Positions 54-7,506 of a DNA stretch of 17,194 bases are shown piece by piece. The translations under genes and the position numbers were made by a program. Source of the stretch: a virus. Below the pieces are notes generated by a model. The model saw only the letters and a program-made list of their open reading frames with translations. It did not search any database and had not been told where the DNA came from. The DNA lies in UHGV virus genome UHGV-0072086; one strand, written 5' to 3'. How positions within the stretch are numbered: position 1 is the first letter of the stretch; each line of letters opens with the position of its first letter.

Positions 54-526
54 ACCTCAATCTCTCTGACCGTTCCGCCAGCTTCTTTGAATTTTGCAAT
101 CAGGCTGTCAACCTTATGCTCGAACTGACCGTAACCAGCCCCCGGCAGTGAAGCCCAGATATTGCTGCAACGGTCGATTGCCTGACGGATATCACCGCGA
201 TCAATCATCGGTAAAGCGCCACGTTCCTTAATCTGTTGCAGTGCCACAGCGTCCTGGCTTTTCGGAGAGAAGTCTTTCAGGCCAAGCTGCTTACGATAGG
301 CATCCCACCAACGGGAAAGAAGCTGGTAACGTCCGGCTGCTGTTGATTTGAGTTTGGGGTTTAGCGTGACAAGTTTGCGAGGGTGATCGGAGTAATCAGT
401 GAATAGCTCTCCGCCAACAATGACGTCATAACCATGATTTCTGGTTTTCTGACGTCCGTTATCAGTTCCCTCCGACCACGCCAGCATATCGAGGAACGCC
501 TTACGTTGATTATTGATTTCCACCAT
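50..526 (-). CDS. R: Endolysin R (lambda-type lytic transglycosylase), 158 aa
   Basis: ORF translation [39 protein letters not shown]... is near-identical to lambda R from memory; start overlaps the S 3' end as in lambda. Confidence 0.95.
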
Positions 527-833
527 CTTCTACTCCGGCTTTTTTAGCAGCGAAGCGTTTGATAAGCGAACCAATCGAGTCAGTGCCGATATAGCCGATG
601 AACACGCTCGTTATATAAGCGAGATTGCTACTTAGTCCGGCGAAGTCGAGAAGGTCACGAATGAACCAGGCGATAATGGCGCACATCGTTGCGTCGATTA
701 CTGTTTTTGTAAACGCACCGCCATTATATCTGCCGCGAAGGTACGCCATTGCAAACGCAAGGATTGCCCCGATGCCTTGTTCCTTTGCCGCGAGAATGGC
801 GGCTAACAGGTCATGTTTTTCTGGCATCTTCAT
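510..833 (-). CDS. S: Holin S (S107; S105 would start at the second Met, codon 3)
   Basis: Translation [39 protein letters not shown]... matches lambda S including the dual-start MKM motif. Confidence 0.95.
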
Positions 834-2168: not shown

Positions 2169-2353
2169 GATCTTCCCCTTTTGCCCTGTTTGACCATCAG
2201 GACGCCGTTAACTATTACGTGACGCTCGCCTTTGCTGTCTCGGTTGTACTTGAGCACTGTTCCTCTTGCGCAGGAAAGCATCCTCGCCACTTCGGTCTGA
2301 TTGCCTCGTGTCTGGATAAGAAGCTCTGGTATCGTTTGAATTGTGGCGTTCAT
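2165..2353 (-). CDS. ninH: NinH-like small DNA-binding protein (Fis-like HTH), 62 aa
   Basis: Motif GNQTEVARMLSCARGTVLKY resembles NinH/Fis-type HTH; ATGA overlap with Q start and with RusA stop; position between rusA and Q as in lambdoid nin regions. Confidence 0.7.
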   Translation of the reverse strand: MNATIQTIPELLIQTRGNQTEVARMLSCARGTVLKYNRDSKGERHVIVNGVLMVKQGKRGRS

Positions 2354-2712
2354 ACGTTCTCCAGTTCGGTGATTTTTATTCCAAGCCTTCCGCCTGGTAC
2401 TTTCACACCACGAATTACGCGAATGTCATCGAATTGCTCGTCGTCTTCCGCAAATCCGGCGTGGATAAGGGAGTCGAGTAAACCCTTCAGGATGTTATCG
2501 AGGTCGCGGCGGCGGGAGTCTGGAACGTCTGCGATGACTTTGATGCGGAGTCTTGATTTGGTGAAAATGTCTAACTTGAGTTGGCGGATGATTTGCTGAA
2601 CGTCTTTTCGGTATTTCTGGCCTTTATCGCTTATGTAATATTGGCTTCCCCGTCTTCGCCAGTAGGTATTCACCGACGGCGGGTATGGAAGCACAAACTG
2701 ATATTCGTTCAT
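2350..2712 (-). CDS. rusA: RusA-family Holliday junction resolvase, 120 aa
   Basis: Translation has the RusA-like core (PDSRRRDLDNILKGLLDSL, GGRLGIKITE) and similar length to E. coli DLP12 RusA; occupies the ninG position. Confidence 0.85.
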   Translation of the reverse strand: MNEYQFVLPYPPSVNTYWRRRGSQYYISDKGQKYRKDVQQIIRQLKLDIFTKSRLRIKVIADVPDSRRRDLDNILKGLLDSLIHAGFAEDDEQFDDIRVIRGVKVPGGRLGIKITELENV

Positions 2713-2999: not shown

Positions 3000-3218
3000 T
3001 TAATACTCCAGTTCAGGGTCATTTTTTAGGTCATGTTTTTTGCAGAATTGCTGCCACTCTCTTTCCAGCCGCTTACCTGTAAATTTCACTCTGCATTTTG
3101 AGTAAGTGCTAATGGCATTAAATGGTGCTGAGCCTTCAGGAAATCGAGAGCGGAATACTTCTGCCACAGGTACTAAAACCAAATACAAATAATCAGAGCT
3201 ACTAAACGAATCACTCAT
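3000..3218 (-). CDS. Hypothetical protein, 72 aa
   Basis: ORF tightly packed between NinF and the YbcO-like gene (its stop abuts the ybcO-like ATG; its start overlaps the NinF 3' end). No family recognised. Confidence 0.5.
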   Translation of the reverse strand: MSDSFSSSDYLYLVLVPVAEVFRSRFPEGSAPFNAISTYSKCRVKFTGKRLEREWQQFCKKHDLKNDPELEY

Positions 3219-3387
3219 CGTCTTCTTCCTCGTACATTGAGCTATTCGGATCGCTCATCAGTTCTGCGCAGCAGTACTCACACACGTGAACTTCCAGCAC
3301 ATGCAGCTTCTGACCGCAGTTAGCGCACGTTAAAGCCCGCTCGACGCTTTCTTTCTGGTATTGAAGGGATTGGGATGGGCTAAGCAT
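3211..3387 (-). CDS. ninF: NinF, 58 aa
   Basis: Translation from the internal ATG at 3385-3387: MLSPSQSLQYQKESVERALTCANCGQKLHVLEVHVCEYCCAELMSDPNSSMYEEEDDE, near-identical to lambda NinF as recalled. Confidence 0.85.
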   Translation of the reverse strand: MLSPSQSLQYQKESVERALTCANCGQKLHVLEVHVCEYCCAELMSDPNSSMYEEEDDE

Positions 3388-3781
3388 GGCTTTCACCATT
3401 AAAAAGTCGCTTGTAAGCATCAATGTCTCGTTTTGCTTCACCAAGCTTTCGTCTTAATTCCATGTTTTCTGATTCAAGCTTTTCCATGTCTTGTTGGTAT
3501 CGATCGCGGTGTTCTTTCCATGCTTTTCGATACGCCTTCATGTATGTCGTTTTGGCCTTTCTCTTTGCCTGACGAACAGCGTGATGGTTTTCTACAAACC
3601 ACTCAGGGTCGTTAAATGCTGCTCTGGCGCATGTAGACAAATAATTTGCTGCCTCCCTGTTTGGCCAACAAATACTGATAAATGGCAACTTGATAAGCAC
3701 CATTTTTCGTTGAGACTCTTTCTCGCCAAACATGTGCCATTTTTTGATGCTAAGGCCAAATCCAGGTTGAATTAAAAGCAT
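3380..3781 (-). CDS. Hypothetical protein (133 aa from MLLIQPGFGL...), inserted between ninE and ninF
   Basis: ORF with GAGGAA RBS 6 nt upstream of the ATG at 3779-3781 (an alternative ATG lies at 3785-3787); C-terminal coiled-coil-like segment; no lambda counterpart at this position. Confidence 0.55.
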   Translation of the reverse strand: MLLIQPGFGLSIKKWHMFGEKESQRKMVLIKLPFISICWPNREAANYLSTCARAAFNDPEWFVENHHAVRQAKRKAKTTYMKAYRKAWKEHRDRYQQDMEKLESENMELRRKLGEAKRDIDAYKRLFNGESHA

Positions 3782-3783
3782 TG

Positions 3784-3960
3784 TCATTTCCTCGCACGAT
3801 GTCTTAGCCACCGGATATCCCACAGGTGAGCCGTGTAGTTGAAGGTTTTTACGTCAGATTCTTTTGGGATTGGCTTGCGTTTATTTCTGGAGCGTTTCGT
3901 TGGAAGGTATTTGCAGTTTTCGCAGATGATGTCGGTGAAACTTCGTCGCTGTCGTCTCAT
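3784..3960 (-). CDS. ninE: NinE, 58 aa
   Basis: Not in the ORF track (under 60 aa). Manual translation of the minus strand from the ATG at 3958-3960: [58 protein letters not shown], matching lambda NinE as recalled; ATGA overlap with NinB stop. Confidence 0.8.
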
Positions 3961-4367
3961 TCGTACCTCCTGTCGGTAAATCTGACACCCTTACCAATAG
4001 CCCATGCTGTCGTGTACTCAATCAGACTTGCCATACGCTTCACGCTCATCTGTGCGCTGCTCTCACGAATGTTGACGTATTCGCCTTCAAGCCCGGGCAA
4101 AACATCAGCTTCCTGCTTTGTCGCCACTGCATGACCGCTTATCAACAAAACCTTCCATTGTTCTGGTTTTAACCATTTATCGCACCATTGAACCTGACGT
4201 GCGATATCCGCCAGCATCGCGTGAAATTTTGCGTTCTGGTCAAGGTTGCGCTTGTAGTCAGTAATGCGGATTGTGACTGGCTTGTCTTTATCGAGTGGTG
4301 TTGCGAGGATGGCATTTATTGCAGCTTGCTGTTGTTGCTTAGTTCGGAGGAAGATTGTTTGCTTCAC
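3957..4367 (-). CDS. ninB: NinB-family recombination protein (Orf family), 136 aa
   Basis: Translation resembles lambda NinB (e.g. [22 protein letters not shown] versus lambda RSLDQNRKLWACLGDVSRQVEW); GTG start with AAGGAG RBS. Confidence 0.75.
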
Positions 4368-4378
4368 TGAATACTCCT

Positions 4379-4564
4379 TTATTTTTTATGCCTGTAACCC
4401 CATTCTTCCAGCAACCTTGCGGCGTACCACCCAAGAAACAAAGGAAAGAACATTACAATGAGATATTCCCCGCCACGGTCAATGTTCGAAATTGACCAGA
4501 TTACGATGTAACCAGTGCAGGACAGGAATATTACAAACCCCAAAAAGCTACTTCGTCGACTCAT
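4379..4564 (-). CDS. Small predicted membrane protein (about 61 aa, two hydrophobic segments)
   Basis: ORF with AAGGAG RBS 6 nt upstream of the ATG at 4562-4564 (the track's GTG at 4570 is the alternative); hydrophobic stretches FLGFVIFLSCTGYIVIW and LIVMFFPLFLGWYAA. Confidence 0.45.
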   Translation of the reverse strand: MSRRSSFLGFVIFLSCTGYIVIWSISNIDRGGEYLIVMFFPLFLGWYAARLLEEWGYRHKK

Positions 4565-4566
4565 GC

Positions 4567-4881
4567 TCACTCCTTCACTTTGATTCCAGCAGCGCGGATG
4601 TTTTCCTCATAAGCATCCATTGCATCACCGAAGCCATTGGAATAATCAACAGTAAACCCTTTGGCTAATGCTTCTCTGCTGTCGATAAACTTTGGCGCGG
4701 TTATTTCAATATCTGCTCGCGATGCCTGCCATAAAGTCCACCACTCATTTAAGGAGTGACGAATATCCATGCTTGAAAATGCGAAGTACCTATCACCATT
4801 TCTTGCCTCGGTTATCATCTCGAATGGTAATCTCAATTTTTTGGCAACGTATTCCTCAAACTGCTTTCTTGATTCGTCCAT
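4567..4881 (-). CDS. Hypothetical soluble protein, 104 aa
   Basis: ORF with GAGGG RBS, flanked by two small membrane-protein genes, in the ren position downstream of the replication genes. No family recognised. Confidence 0.55.
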   Translation of the reverse strand: MDESRKQFEEYVAKKLRLPFEMITEARNGDRYFAFSSMDIRHSLNEWWTLWQASRADIEITAPKFIDSREALAKGFTVDYSNGFGDAMDAYEENIRAAGIKVKE

Positions 4882-4898
4882 CGGTACTTACCCTCAGT

Positions 4899-5105
4899 TC
4901 AACTCACAAAACGCCACGCCACTTTTGCAACGACAACAGGCATAACACCGATAATCACCCACAGGAAAATGCTACCGAAAAGCACACCCACCAGGTCTTT
5001 ACCTTCGCCTACCAACCGGACAAAACTTCCGACAACCACAATGAACGTCGACACCATCCACATAGCACCGAGAATCCTCAATGCAGAGAAAATTAACTCA
5101 GCCAC
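4899..5105 (-). CDS. Small predicted membrane protein, 68 aa, two hydrophobic segments
   Basis: GTG start preceded by GGGGGAGAG RBS immediately after a terminator hairpin; hydrophobic stretches MWMVSTFIVVVGSFV and VLFGSIFLWVIIGVMPVVV. Confidence 0.45.
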   Translation of the reverse strand: MAELIFSALRILGAMWMVSTFIVVVGSFVRLVGEGKDLVGVLFGSIFLWVIIGVMPVVVAKVAWRFVS

Positions 5106-5118
5106 GATTTACTCTCCC

Positions 5119-5152
5119 CCAAATAAAAAGGCCTGCGATTACCAGCAGGCCT
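5119..5152 (-). terminator. tR2-like intrinsic terminator between the helicase gene and the nin region
   Basis: 8-bp stem aggcctgc (5129-5136) / gcaggcct (5145-5152) with 8-nt loop; A-tract on the + strand at 5121-5129 gives a U-tract after the hairpin on the minus strand. Confidence 0.6.
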
Positions 5153-5180
5153 GTTATTAGCTCAGTGATGTAGATGGTCA

Positions 5181-6617
5181 TCAGAATCCTCCTTTCTTCT
5201 TGGACTGCGGTTCCTCTCGTTCACGTCGGCGCATTTCAGCAGACTGTTGGTCTGTGTCATAAATAGCGCCATTTGCCTGAATGCAATACACCGTGCCGGT
5301 ATTGCCATGACGATTGAGACGAAGGATTAGTTCGGTTTCACCAGGTGGAACACTGTCATCAAAAGCGCCTTCACGATGGATCCCAACCCAATAATCGCAA
5401 TCCTGTTCAATCTGCCCTGTATCTCGTGAGTCACTTGGTAATGGGCGTTTATTGGTTCGGCTTTCCAGTGCGCGGTTAAGCTGTGTCAGAAGCACAACAA
5501 CGCAATCAAGCTCTTTGGCAAGGTTCTTCAGTCCTTTGGTGATCATGCCGTAAGCAAGGTCGTTGCGATCGGCCTTCTCAGCGGTCATTAGTGTCAGGTA
5601 ATCGACCAGAATCATGCCAACATATCCTTTTTCTCGCTTGATTCGACGGCTTTCGCTGACGATTTGAGCCAGAGATAATCCCGGCGTGTCGTCGATGTAA
5701 AGCATGTCGATTTCACTCAAGCGATTGGCTGTTTCGATCGCCCTGTTGAAGTCACCATCGTAATCACCCTGATAGCCGTCATCAGCGTCATTTGTCGCCG
5801 GAAGGTAAAAAATATTCGGGTTAACACCAGACTTCTGCCCTACCAGTTTTTCCAGTATCTGGTCACCGGGCATTTCAAGGCTGAACATCAGAGCGGGCTT
5901 TTTCTCATGCACTGCGCAGTTGATTGCCATCTGGCTGTATAGCGTCGTTTTCCCCATCTTAGGGCGAGCGCCAATGACAAACAGAGAGCCTTTCACCAGA
6001 CCTTTCGGTGACAGCATCCTGTCCAGCGATGGGATCCCTGTGCTCATTCCTCGTTGTTCGCCTGACGGGTCAAATCGCTTCTCAAGGTCGCTAACCCAGT
6101 CTTCCATGACCTCACCAAATGAGCGAAGGCCGCGACGCGATCCGGTTTTTGCATGGTCTGTCAGTTGCGTGAAAATCGCCTGAATAGCTTCGTACTTCTG
6201 CGTTGCAGTCATTCCGTTGCGGGAATAGAGCAATTCCGTCGCTTCAGTCATGCGGTTGATGGCGTAGCGTTCCATTGCGGTTTCACGAACCTGCATTGCA
6301 TAGGCAACGATGTTTGCTGCGCTTGGCGTGTTCTTTGCGATCTCAGCGATATAAGCAAAACCGCCAACAGACGCCGTTAACGATTTACGCTCCAGTTCAT
6401 CGAAAAGCGTCAGGCCATCTACTGGCTTTTGCTCCCGGTGCATTCTGGTTATTTCTTCGAAAAGGATTTTGTGTGGCCGGCTGTAAAATGAGTCAGGCTT
6501 CAGCATCGCCAGAACTTTCTGGACGCGCTCACTGCTGTCATCATCCAGAAGCAATCCACCAATCACCGCCTGCTCTGCCTCGATGCTATGGTGCGGCGCA
6601 TAAAAATTATCGGTCAT
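5181..6617 (-). CDS. DnaB-family replicative DNA helicase (phage-encoded), about 478 aa
   Basis: Translation has the DnaB N-terminal motif HSIEAEQAVIGGLLLDD, Walker A GARPKMGKTT, and DnaB-like C-terminal motifs (LTQLNR, SDSRDTGQIEQDCD). ATG at 6615-6617 with GAGGG RBS; the track's upstream GTG at 6632 is an alternative. Confidence 0.9.
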   Translation of the reverse strand: MTDNFYAPHHSIEAEQAVIGGLLLDDDSSERVQKVLAMLKPDSFYSRPHKILFEEITRMHREQKPVDGLTLFDELERKSLTASVGGFAYIAEIAKNTPSAANIVAYAMQVRETAMERYAINRMTEATELLYSRNGMTATQKYEAIQAIFTQLTDHAKTGSRRGLRSFGEVMEDWVSDLEKRFDPSGEQRGMSTGIPSLDRMLSPKGLVKGSLFVIGARPKMGKTTLYSQMAINCAVHEKKPALMFSLEMPGDQILEKLVGQKSGVNPNIFYLPATNDADDGYQGDYDGDFNRAIETANRLSEIDMLYIDDTPGLSLAQIVSESRRIKREKGYVGMILVDYLTLMTAEKADRNDLAYGMITKGLKNLAKELDCVVVLLTQLNRALESRTNKRPLPSDSRDTGQIEQDCDYWVGIHREGAFDDSVPPGETELILRLNRHGNTGTVYCIQANGAIYDTDQQSAEMRRREREEPQSKKKGGF

Positions 6618-7506
6618 CGTGTTCACCCTCACGAACTTTCAGGTAGGTATTATCGTTAAGCAGGAAATCAAATCCCTTTTTGTGCCAGACGGTTCCGCGT
6701 TGATGGTTTGGGCGCTCTTCGAACATCCATCGGCAATTTTCGCCAACGTAGCTCAAATAATTTCTCCAGTCCTGCATCGTGAACCCATGCCCGTCAAGCT
6801 GGCGGGTTATCACTCCGGCTTTGCGCCAGAACGTTCGGATCTGGTTTTTACGCTTGTCATTCAGTGCGCGGATTCTTGGAGCTTCAGGAAGGATTTCGTG
6901 GTAAGCATCGACAACATCCTGACAGCTGACGGAAGGTTTTTTCTTGTCAGACTTTTTGTCTGCTGCGGTACTCTCTAATACGTCAGTATTAGAGATAATA
7001 TTATTATATTCTTTATCTGTGGTAATTTGCTGGTAATCTGCTGGTACAGTATTGCTTGCAGGCATTGGTATTGCTGGCTTTGAGGTGGTAATTTGCTGGT
7101 AATCTGCTGGTACAAAATTTGACTGATAATCGTCATATTTCTCTACCGAGAAAACTGAGAATTTACCGTGTGAAACCCAGTCAATCATGCCGAGTTTTTT
7201 GAACTTTCTAAGCAGGTACTGAACGCGATCTGGTTTGAGTCCTGTTTCAAACGCCAGAGAGTTTCTACCGCCAAGTAGCTTCCCTCTGCCTACCAGAATT
7301 TCTCCTGCGTCAGTCATTACATACTCAGGCGTATGCTTTGCTTTGAGGATTAAGTGAACCCACAGATGCGCAGCTTCTGCGTCCTTGTAAAACGGCACAT
7401 CCATAATTTTACGGTGCAGCAAGGCATACCCCTTACCGCTGCTTTGATGCGGTTGTTGTAGCCTTCTGGCCTCTCTGGCTTCGGCTAGATTAGATATGTT
7501 ACTCAT
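6607..7506 (-). CDS. Replication initiator, lambda O-like (origin-binding; ori embedded in the gene), 299 aa
   Basis: Position between cII and the helicase gene, AAGGAG RBS, and iteron repeats plus an AT-rich block inside the coding sequence as in lambda O; the protein shows an in-frame PADYQQITT duplication encoded by the iterons. Confidence 0.75.
6973..7114. other. Candidate origin of replication: iterons, AT-rich block and palindrome inside the O-like gene
   Basis: Perfect 30-bp direct repeat gtggtaatttgctggtaatctgctggtaca at 7019-7048 and 7085-7114 (period 66 bp), each containing 11-bp sub-repeats TGGTAATYTGC; AT-rich block 6991-7016; 10-bp perfect inverted repeat tctctaatac/gtattagaga at 6973-6996. 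Confidence 0.6.

Follow-up and report, generated by a model that had tools for sequence, protein, structure and literature searches.

Three small genes between tR2 and ninB of a lambdoid E. coli prophage are probably separate accessory modules of the nin region

Three small genes, here called p68, p104 and p61 after the lengths of their products, stand at the head of the nin region in a lambdoid E. coli prophage, where they fill the slot that runs from ninA/tR2 to ninB. The results presented below suggest that they are three separate single-gene accessory modules, a reading to which we give a probability of roughly 0.7. Each is a real gene, as shown by purifying selection on p61 and p68 and by the large family to which p104 belongs, and what they make up is ordinary mosaic nin-region cargo.

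Position of the genes in the nin region

The window (the whole 17,194-nt stretch of virus genome UHGV-0072086 that was analysed) carries the three ORFs tightly packed on the minus strand, with p68 at 4899..5105, p104 at 4567..4881 and p61 at 4379..4564. Upstream lies a DnaB-type replicative helicase gene of the P22 gene 12 type (5181..6632, minus strand; Pfam DnaB, E 2e-30; DnaB_C, E 2e-60). Its TGA stop overlaps the ATG of ninA (ATGA), a 27-aa hydrophobic ORF (MTIYITELITGLLVIAGLFIWGRVNRG; 5098..5181, minus strand) recognised from its translation and a match to phrog_5907 (E 1e-18), and the ninA stop in turn overlaps the GTG start of p68. Spacers of 17 nt separate p68 from p104, 2 nt (or a GTGA overlap) p104 from p61, and 11 nt p61 from ninB. 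The latter encodes an Orf-type recombination mediator (3957..4367, minus strand; Pfam NinB, E 6e-54) and forms the downstream edge of the variable slot; the ninB/ninE junction is ATGA. All three genes of the original prediction are therefore present, but it had overlooked ninA as a fourth tiny hydrophobic ORF.

ninA encloses an intrinsic, tR2-like terminator (5120..5152, minus strand), identified by a terminator scan, RNA folding and alignment. It consists of the stem-loop AGGCCTGC-TGGTAATC-GCAGGCCT followed by TTTTTATTT (5152..5129 in the scan, with an 8-bp stem that includes 6 G-C pairs), and the RNA fold has a minimum free energy of -16.8 kcal/mol. In an alignment with lambda, HK630 and mEp235, the hairpin and T-run (5129..5152) were base-for-base identical to the lambda ren-ninB intergenic sequence. 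The lambda record tested has no terminator feature, and we take lambda tR2 to be located between ren and ninB; in the P22 record the equivalent site is annotated as a terminator similar to lambda's. The enclosing ORF is annotated ninA in both P22 and HK630. The ORFs, the terminator scan and the identity to lambda together confirm that three packed minus-strand genes follow a helicase gene and a tR2-like terminator.

The genes had also been assigned to the ren position. This is wrong, because lambda ren sits upstream of tR2, whereas p68, p104 and p61 lie downstream of it. The gene order is ren - tR2 - ninB in lambda and gene 12 - ninA (with the terminator) - ninB in P22, where nothing lies between. 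Like the three genes, ren is a small non-essential early gene just after the replication genes. However, it overlaps the stop of P, is not hydrophobic and has no sequence similarity to any of the three; BLASTP against lambda Ren gave no match at E <= 10.

N, Q, NinB, RusA and YbcO were all found in the window, with ninB, RusA, YbcO and Q downstream on the same strand. As expected of nin modules, p68, p104 and p61 lie within the part of the pR operon that runs from tR2 to Q, have tight junctions and vary in presence among lambdoid phages. All three are absent from lambda and P22, and are therefore dispensable, and their presence varies across IMG/VR loci and across E. coli genomes. The contents of the slot differ among loci, which bears out the expectation of variable cargo at this place in lambdoid phages. 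The nin region is non-essential and typically mosaic, with genes packed by ATGA overlaps (PMC8022706; PMC2629481). Papers found in searches on ninA/ninB, the nin region, phage accessory genes and small membrane proteins described the nin region in general terms only, and the GC content of the locus showed no anomaly of the kind that would point to recent acquisition from a foreign source.

The accessory nin genes of lambda and P22 (ninA to ninH, ninX/Y/Z) share with our three genes the operon, the place (tR2 to Q), the packing, dispensability and mosaicism. However, p68, p104 and p61 are not among them, and two of the three encode membrane-type proteins; to our knowledge, no nin gene of lambda or P22 has a characterised membrane function. 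Several small hydrophobic proteins are housed in the slot, namely ninA, p68, p61, a 60-aa and a 108-aa protein. Their gathering there hints at a shared theme.

Features and conservation of the three proteins

p68 starts at GTG, with the Shine-Dalgarno sequence GGGGGAGAG, which serves ninB in lambda. Its hydropathy (GRAVY 1.56; two Kyte-Doolittle windows >1.6) bears out the two hydrophobic segments foreseen for the 68-aa protein. The match to phrog_1165 is full length (residues 1-68 on profile positions 1-68; E 6.9e-35), and 179 homologue clusters were found. PHROG 1165, a family without an assigned function, includes HK022 gp58, Stx2-86 gp69 and mEp235 gp46; the place right after ninA/tR2 is common to HK022 and mEp235, and the mEp235 record gives a shorter 52-aa version that begins at an internal ATG. 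The alleles fall into two types (about 90% identical and about 57% identical), both of which keep the GTG start. Comparison with the 57% allele gave a dN/dS of 0.32 at a dS of about 1.09, and p68 is under purifying selection. The gene occurs in 451 of 5,426 complete E. coli genomes.

p61 starts at an ATG five bases 3' of AAGGAG. A GTG at 4570 is an alternative start, which would lengthen the product to 63 aa and overlap the stop of p104; a homologue with 72% identity keeps the ATG, and its GTG falls at a different codon offset. Two Kyte-Doolittle windows exceed 1.6, and the AlphaFold2 model has helices at 3-26 and 31-60 separated by a 4-residue turn (pLDDT 71), in agreement with the anticipated protein of about 61 aa with two hydrophobic segments. 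The charges of p61 (N-terminal RR, C-terminal RHKK, short loop NIDRGGE) suggest that both ends would face the cytoplasm. Taken with the hydropathy of p68, we infer that each of the two proteins probably inserts in the inner membrane as a two-helix hairpin. No similarity was found when p68, p61 and the 60-aa protein were compared as mutual distant homologues.

p61 is an orphan with four homologue clusters only. Since an HMMER search with its profile against 1.84 billion representatives gave a single marginal match (E 9.5e-4), we treat it as a narrow orphan; the same search returned no self-match at E <= 1e-10 and was not used as a measure of abundance. A sub-threshold match to Acyl_transf_3 in the Pfam, NCBIfam and PADLOC scans was rejected as hydrophobic noise. 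Complete E. coli genomes with p61 number 195 of the 5,426, and the 72% homologue apart, its identity is 95-100% everywhere.

Could p61, and perhaps p68, be a chance ORF? In the RefSeq E. coli genomes among the matches listed, PGAP places no feature over p61, as would be expected of a chance ORF, and the near-identical p61 alleles, with 11 non-synonymous versus 5 synonymous codon changes, are uninformative. However, p61 is annotated in two phage records, and comparison with the 72% homologue (75% nucleotide identity) gave a dN/dS of 0.19 at a dS of about 1.0, with the 61-aa length, the ATG and the Shine-Dalgarno sequence all kept. p61 is thus under purifying selection. For p68, the dN/dS value and the full-length PHROG match likewise argue against a chance origin, which we regard as extremely improbable.

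The middle protein, p104, was expected to be soluble, and its hydropathy agrees: no Kyte-Doolittle window exceeds 1.6, the GRAVY is -0.61 and the protein is net acidic. Its AlphaFold2 model is mostly helical (pLDDT 77). The match to phrog_343 is full length (E 1.6e-26), and there are 339 database relatives, with precomputed Pfam PF26207 on nearly all of those listed. Shigella phage Sf6 gp48 is 70% identical to p104 over its full length, in a family without an assigned function. PGAP names the relatives 'phiTE_015 family protein', a term for which a literature search found no paper. p104 and five relatives gave no match in a copy of Pfam that lacks the PF26207 model, and the p104 profile found nothing below E 0.1 among PDB sequences. 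The last 38 residues bear a short and weak resemblance to the C-terminus of P22 EaD (42% identity, pairwise E 2e-4), itself a 197-aa protein of the early-left ea region with no assigned function, and the p104 homologue in the Gally record is named 'similar to P22 EaD'.

The p104 family has three near-invariant anchors (24-30 nt) around two hypervariable cassettes, a pattern of intragenic mosaicism. The cassettes come in at least 26 x 11 types and at least 43 N-/C-terminal combinations, of which the window allele is one. Judging from its sequence, p104 is probably a helical scaffold in the cytoplasm, with two acidic cassettes on its surface that can be swapped.

Co-occurrence of the genes and exchange at linkers

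If the three genes worked as a system, they might be expected to travel together. In a ninB-anchored sample of 66 distinct slots, which is small and phylogenetically non-independent, p68 was present in 31, the p104 family in 58 (88%) and p61 in 15. All three were found in 8 of the 66, against about 6.3 expected by chance, and no pair was significantly associated (Fisher p = 0.18 for p61/p104, and 0.77 and 1.0 for the other two pairs). The trio is present in only 39 of the 5,426 complete E. coli genomes, and conservation of the three-gene linkage across prophages, put forward earlier as a check, was not observed. ninB comes straight after p68 in 25 of the 80 p68-anchored loci, and only 8 of the 80 have p61. 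Phage mEp235 has p68 and p104 without p61, and a p61 homologue is found directly after a helicase with neither partner upstream. With presences that are statistically independent and loci in which the genes stand apart, a three-gene cassette or system is not supported. The original prediction had named, as evidence against itself, independent occurrence with annotated unrelated functions in other genomes; the former was found, at loci and in slots, and the latter was not.

The junctions show how the genes move. AAGGAGT forms a 7-nt direct repeat flanking p61. The left copy (4569..4575, minus strand) serves both as the final codons of p104 and as the Shine-Dalgarno sequence for p61, and is the left edge of the p61 module; the right copy (4373..4379, minus strand) overlaps the p61 stop, is the Shine-Dalgarno sequence of ninB, and is the right edge. 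Both edges were defined by comparison with mEp235, in which the same p104 is followed directly by ninB. A relocated p61 (locus L012) has brought along 21 nt from the end of p104 and 11 nt from the start of ninB, and GAGGGTAAGTACCGATG precedes both p104 and the unrelated 60-aa membrane gene. These results show that the genes come and go independently, via recombination at short shared linkers that coincide with gene boundaries.

The company kept by p61 raises the question of whether p104 and p61 form a two-gene unit, in which p104 would be the hypervariable soluble specificity or sensor part and p61 the hairpin that serves as membrane partner or effector. In p61-anchored loci a p104-family gene lies somewhere in the slot in 61 of 62, and the one other locus is truncated where its contig stops. 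p61 adjoins such a gene in 52 of the 62, with a five-base spacer or GTGA overlap, and the p104 alleles concerned span 34 to 99% identity; at the other 10 such a gene is found a short way downstream, and the p61 module retains 21 nt from the end of p104. p104 is also present in all 15 of the p61-positive slots of the ninB-anchored sample. However, 88% of slots have a p104-family gene regardless, which is why this last figure is not significant, and p61 is missing from 43 of the 58 slots that have one. The 72% homologue lies directly after a helicase with no p104 upstream. Moreover, since p61 is otherwise so uniform, the adjacency may merely reflect a recent single origin beside p104. Finally, the membrane-soluble-membrane arrangement was sought around p104 relatives in other genera, where neighbours were heterogeneous and no consistent membrane neighbour appeared. 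We therefore think a two-gene unit rather unlikely, even if the constant company of p61 and p104 could reflect a dependence below the detection of this sample.

Expression and possible roles

A scan of 4200..5400 for sigma-70 consensus-like sites, which may miss weak promoters, found none on the coding strand, and no convincing terminator was found 3' of the three genes. Since there appears to be no internal promoter, the genes should be expressed from pR by N antitermination during lytic growth, and a repressed prophage would be expected to express them weakly at most. Judging from their position, the genes would be transcribed only within the pR delayed-early operon, after N carries RNA polymerase past tR2, and would act during lytic growth or induction but not in the quiescent lysogen. 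Translation would probably be coupled to the upstream gene in each case.

This mode of expression bears on the suggestion that the trio acts at the membrane in defence or exclusion, by abortive infection or superinfection exclusion, or is a toxin with its partners. A soluble protein does lie between two small membrane-type proteins, in a hot spot for variable cargo. T4 Imm and P22 SieA, both phage exclusion proteins, are likewise small and located in the inner membrane; Imm is made early in lytic infection, and HK97 gp15 is expressed from the prophage. The likeness to these three is that of small phage-encoded membrane proteins. In the P22 record, however, SieA is annotated with a promoter of its own, whereas p68, p104 and p61 sit behind tR2 inside the repressed pR operon. 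That little or no expression is expected from a repressed prophage argues against an abortive-infection or exclusion module in lysogens, and p61 is found in the same early operon of the free-living phages Gally, HZ41, 611R6 and phiv205-1. Comparison with known proteins points the same way: none of the three proteins matched Pfam or NCBIfam above threshold, the PADLOC defence models yielded 0 families at E <= 1, and BLASTP found nothing meaningful against P22 SieA, SieB, gp17, holin, Kil and C3. Together with the independent assortment of the genes, these results make such a module very unlikely, and the proposal finds no support.

The original prediction had also offered a holin-like pair, and p68 or p61 or both might in principle modulate lysis timing as holin- or antiholin-like proteins. 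Their size and two-helix topology resemble those of class II holins, but this is resemblance only; neither matched a Pfam holin family or showed any likeness to the P22 holin. Moreover, the phage already has a lambda S-type holin of its own (510..833), within a complete late-operon lysis cassette, whereas p68 and p61 belong to the early operon, distant from the lysis genes. This reading is not supported either, and we hold it to be highly improbable.

We return to the preferred reading of three separate modules, and ask what each might do. Tentatively, and with the odds against it, each protein alone might be a non-essential fitness factor in infection, the hairpins acting on an envelope process and p104 binding a polymorphic target of the host or of a rival phage. 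For the hairpins one might guess at the entry of a second phage genome or at a membrane-bound host defence. A more specific version, which we consider doubtful, would make p104 an arms-race specificity protein, its cassettes swapped at the anchors against a polymorphic host defence or rival-phage target, with the hairpins (p61, p68 and the 60-aa protein) as optional partners or parallel countermeasures. If this were true, lambdoid phages would have a hot spot for counter-defence or competition at the head of their nin region.

For now, p68, p104 and p61 should not be treated as a system; they are three additions to the catalogue of nin cargo, and p61 is a conserved gene for a small, predicted membrane protein that annotation has missed in the RefSeq matches listed. 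The slot between tR2 and ninB cleanly illustrates how single-gene modules are exchanged in nature at short linkers, and the p104 family, with its striking shuffling of cassettes within the gene, is a reasonable candidate when lambdoid early genes are screened for counter-defence or competition functions.

Position of the three genes behind tR2

The window is the early region of a lambdoid prophage. Its rightward early operon lies on the minus strand and contains an O-like initiator (6607..7506), a DnaB-type helicase (5181..6632), NinB (3957..4367), NinE, YbcO, RusA and Q beyond NinB, and the phage's own lambda S-type holin (510..833), with a lambda-type N protein and a CI-like repressor on the other side. 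The whole window finds a match of at least 80% in no complete E. coli genome (best coverage 64%, at about 96-98% identity), and the prophage is a unique mosaic assembled from common parts. Among the downstream ORFs, one of 147 aa (3380..3823, minus strand) matches phrog_1511 from residue 15 and overlaps the next ORF by 65 nt, while the latter (3211..3444, minus strand) matches phrog_672 only from residue 20; in both cases the mechanically assigned start codon probably lies too far upstream. Three of the contigs compared (L154, L155 and L159) are almost identical to E. coli lambdoid phage DNA and come from MAGs labelled Bacillota, Collinsella and Cellvibrionaceae, labels that most likely reflect binning contamination.

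A terminator scan identified a GC-rich 8-bp stem at 5152..5129, followed by TTTTTATTT. The tR2-like terminator claimed in the original prediction was borne out by alignment, since both hairpin and T-run have exactly the lambda sequence found between ren and ninB, which we take to be the location of lambda tR2. In the P22 record the equivalent site is annotated as a terminator 'similar to phage lambda' and lies inside the 26-aa ninA, with ninB directly next. The hairpin in the window likewise falls within the reading frame of a 27-aa hydrophobic ninA ORF (5098..5181, minus strand; MTIYITELITGLLVIAGLFIWGRVNRG; phrog_5907), whose start overlaps the helicase stop (ATGA) and whose stop overlaps the GTG of the first of the three genes, p68. 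This ORF had been overlooked in the original prediction. The ninA region is near-invariant, too much so for a selection test, and may be either a translated gene or a mere ORF over a conserved terminator. Because lambda ren is upstream of tR2 and the trio is downstream, the proposed 'ren position' was incorrect. With a P22-type ninA and terminator in front of them, the three genes are inserted at the start of the nin region, ninA/tR2 lying on one side and ninB on the other. The Shine-Dalgarno sequence of p68, GGGGGAGAG, is the one that serves ninB in lambda.

Three genuine genes

The three minus-strand ORFs between helicase and ninB were found as originally described: p68 (4899..5105; GTG start, 68 aa), p104 (4567..4881; 104 aa) and p61 (4379..4564; 61 aa, with an ATG start five bases past AAGGAG). 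An alternative GTG two codons upstream would give p61 63 aa and overlaps the p104 stop. Hydropathy agrees with the description of a soluble protein flanked by two membrane proteins, in that p68 has two strongly hydrophobic stretches (GRAVY 1.56), p61 also has two, and the acidic p104 has none. An AlphaFold2 model of p61 (pLDDT 71) consists of helices 3-26 and 31-60 separated by a four-residue turn, and its charges, with RR and RHKK at the N- and C-terminal ends and NIDRGGE as the short loop, suggest a hairpin whose two ends are both cytoplasmic.

All three are real genes. An equally long, 72%-identical homologue of p61 is present on a metagenomic contig, with a dN/dS of 0.19 (dS ~1.0) at 75% nucleotide identity. 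For p68, which has two allele types, comparison with the 57% allele gave a dN/dS of 0.32 (dS ~1.09), and that allele keeps both the GTG start and the sequence upstream of it. For p104, 339 relatives were found across Enterobacterales (E <= 0.001). On the antisense strand, an ORF of 134 aa that begins with TTG (4692..5096, plus strand) runs across p104 and p68; it is probably spurious because the sense frames are under purifying selection. PGAP calls p68 and p104 but not p61, even in a 100%-identical genome. p61 occurs in 195 of 5,426 complete E. coli genomes, with no annotated feature over it in any match listed; it appears to be a small membrane-protein gene that annotation misses systematically. 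Unannotated in RefSeq, it is one of only two mildly novel elements here, the other being the cassette-shuffled p104 family.

p68 matches PHROG 1165 from end to end (E 7e-35) and p104 matches PHROG 343 (E 1.6e-26). Relatives of p104 bear Pfam PF26207 and the PGAP name 'phiTE_015 family protein'; the protein itself is 70% identical to that of Sf6 gene 48, and over its C-terminal 38 residues it shows weak similarity to the end of P22 EaD. No PHROG match was obtained for p61, which forms only four 90% clusters among 5.8 billion proteins, and an exhaustive profile search added nothing. It is present in 4 of 50,697 phage records, all of E. coli phages, with Lederbergvirus given in the three that show a taxonomy. 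None of the three proteins matched Pfam, NCBIfam or PADLOC models, or resembled Ren, SieA, SieB, gp17, Kil, C3 or the P22 holin.

Independent assortment and module junctions

The original prediction regarded the trio as a cassette and proposed that its linkage be checked across prophages. Among 80 IMG/VR loci anchored on p68, a p104-family gene was present in 51 and p61 in only eight, and in 25 ninB followed 11 bases past p68. Phage mEp235 has p68, a 98%-identical p104 and then ninB, without p61. In 62 loci anchored on p61, the upstream neighbour was a p104-family allele (52 loci) or an unrelated 71-aa basic protein (10 loci), and p68 was often missing or of the other allele type. A divergent p61 homologue lies directly after a DnaB helicase. 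This, the only divergent homologue, is on a Logan contig (L151, SRR19355472_1058301; 2267..2587; 72% identity), where a NinA-like ORF, MTAYLTECIVGL..., starts about 100 nt downstream; on this contig p61 lies ahead of the tR2 position, in the true ren position. p104 relatives in other genera had mixed neighbours, and the membrane-soluble-membrane pattern was not found among them.

Sampling by ninB is unbiased toward any of the three genes. In 66 distinct slots anchored in this way, p68 was present in 31, the p104 family in 58 and p61 in 15, and all three together in eight, compared with about 6.3 expected if they were independent (Fisher's test: p61 versus p104, p = 0.18; p61 versus p68, p = 0.77; p68 versus p104, p = 1.0). 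At least 80% of the 951-bp stretch is found in 39 of the 5,426 complete E. coli genomes, and p68 in 451. What had been read as a 'three-gene cassette' is a set of nin-region modules that assort independently and have come together by chance; the original observation was accurate and its genes are real, but the cassette reading and the analogy with ren do not hold.

Short linkers are shared between junctions. The direct repeat AAGGAGT stands on both sides of p61: the copy at 4569..4575 (minus strand) comprises the p104 end and the p61 Shine-Dalgarno, and that at 4373..4379 (minus strand) overlaps the p61 stop and is the Shine-Dalgarno of ninB. mEp235 has one copy. Where p61 is found elsewhere, in locus L012 (3960..4470), it has brought along 21 nt from the 3' end of p104, which are joined there to the 71-aa gene, together with 11 nt from the 5' end of ninB. 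A second linker, GAGGGTAAGTACCGATG, stands in front of p104 and also in front of an unrelated membrane gene (60 aa, two helices). What the junctions show is the module-and-linker scheme put forward long ago for the nin regions of lambdoid phages (Clark et al. 2001, as cited in PMC2327257), and it agrees with published accounts of the region as non-essential, tightly packed and 'typically mosaic' (PMC8022706; PMC2629481). Other modules occupy the tR2-ninB slot in L012 (3775..4428) and further IMG/VR loci: the 60-aa two-helix membrane protein (MVNAFICSLF...), the basic protein of 71 aa (MSTIAELVRANF...), one of 108 aa with a single helix, and one of 66 aa. Small hydrophobic proteins seem to be over-represented in this slot.

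Mosaicism within p104, expression and possible function

The p104 family is also mosaic within the gene. Three near-invariant 24-30-nt stretches, encoding the anchors MDESRKQFEE, WQASRAAIEI and IRAAGIKVKE, flank two hypervariable cassettes. In 135 distinct proteins, a sample biased toward the query's types, 43 combinations were counted of at least 26 N-segment types with at least 11 C-segment types; the N type of the window was seen with 10 different C types, and the window's C type with 24 N types. Against E. coli genomes, each half of the window's allele matches on its own (nt 1-177 or 151-315), and at least 80% of the gene is present in just 35 of 363 genomes. The anchors are almost invariant in nucleotides, third codon positions included, within the E. 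coli phage pool, and are kept as amino acids in other genera. The p104 model (pLDDT 77) contains helices and two short strands, the strands being formed by the conserved motifs IEI (second anchor) and KVK (third anchor), with the first anchor in the N-terminal helix; it gave no informative structural neighbour. Relatives of 138-140 aa in four of the homologous loci (L024, L035, L064 and L159) are extended at the N-terminus by a Cys-rich stretch, MSKCQKCNNTGMCDSGGSTPWGEPIFIECDC, which may be a small zinc-binding module joined in frame.

The trio lies behind tR2 within the pR operon of a phage that has an N gene. A promoter scan found no consensus promoter on its coding strand, its GC content is not anomalous, and its gene junctions are close or overlapping. 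The three proteins would be delayed-early products, translated by coupling and made only when N antiterminates through tR2, on infection or induction, and not in the repressed prophage. p68 and p61 would form inner-membrane hairpins, with p104 remaining cytoplasmic. An abortive-infection or exclusion system expressed in the lysogen, as originally suggested, is disfavoured because of this position and the independent assortment of the three genes, and a holin pair is disfavoured by the lysis cassette that the phage already carries. Our best guess, of low confidence, is that each of the three contributes to fitness in lytic growth independently of the others. Tentatively, the hairpins may act on an envelope process, for instance a second phage genome entering the cell or a host defence bound to the membrane. 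The mosaic pattern of p104 would suit a protein under diversifying pressure, and we speculate that it may bind a variable target of the host or of a rival phage.
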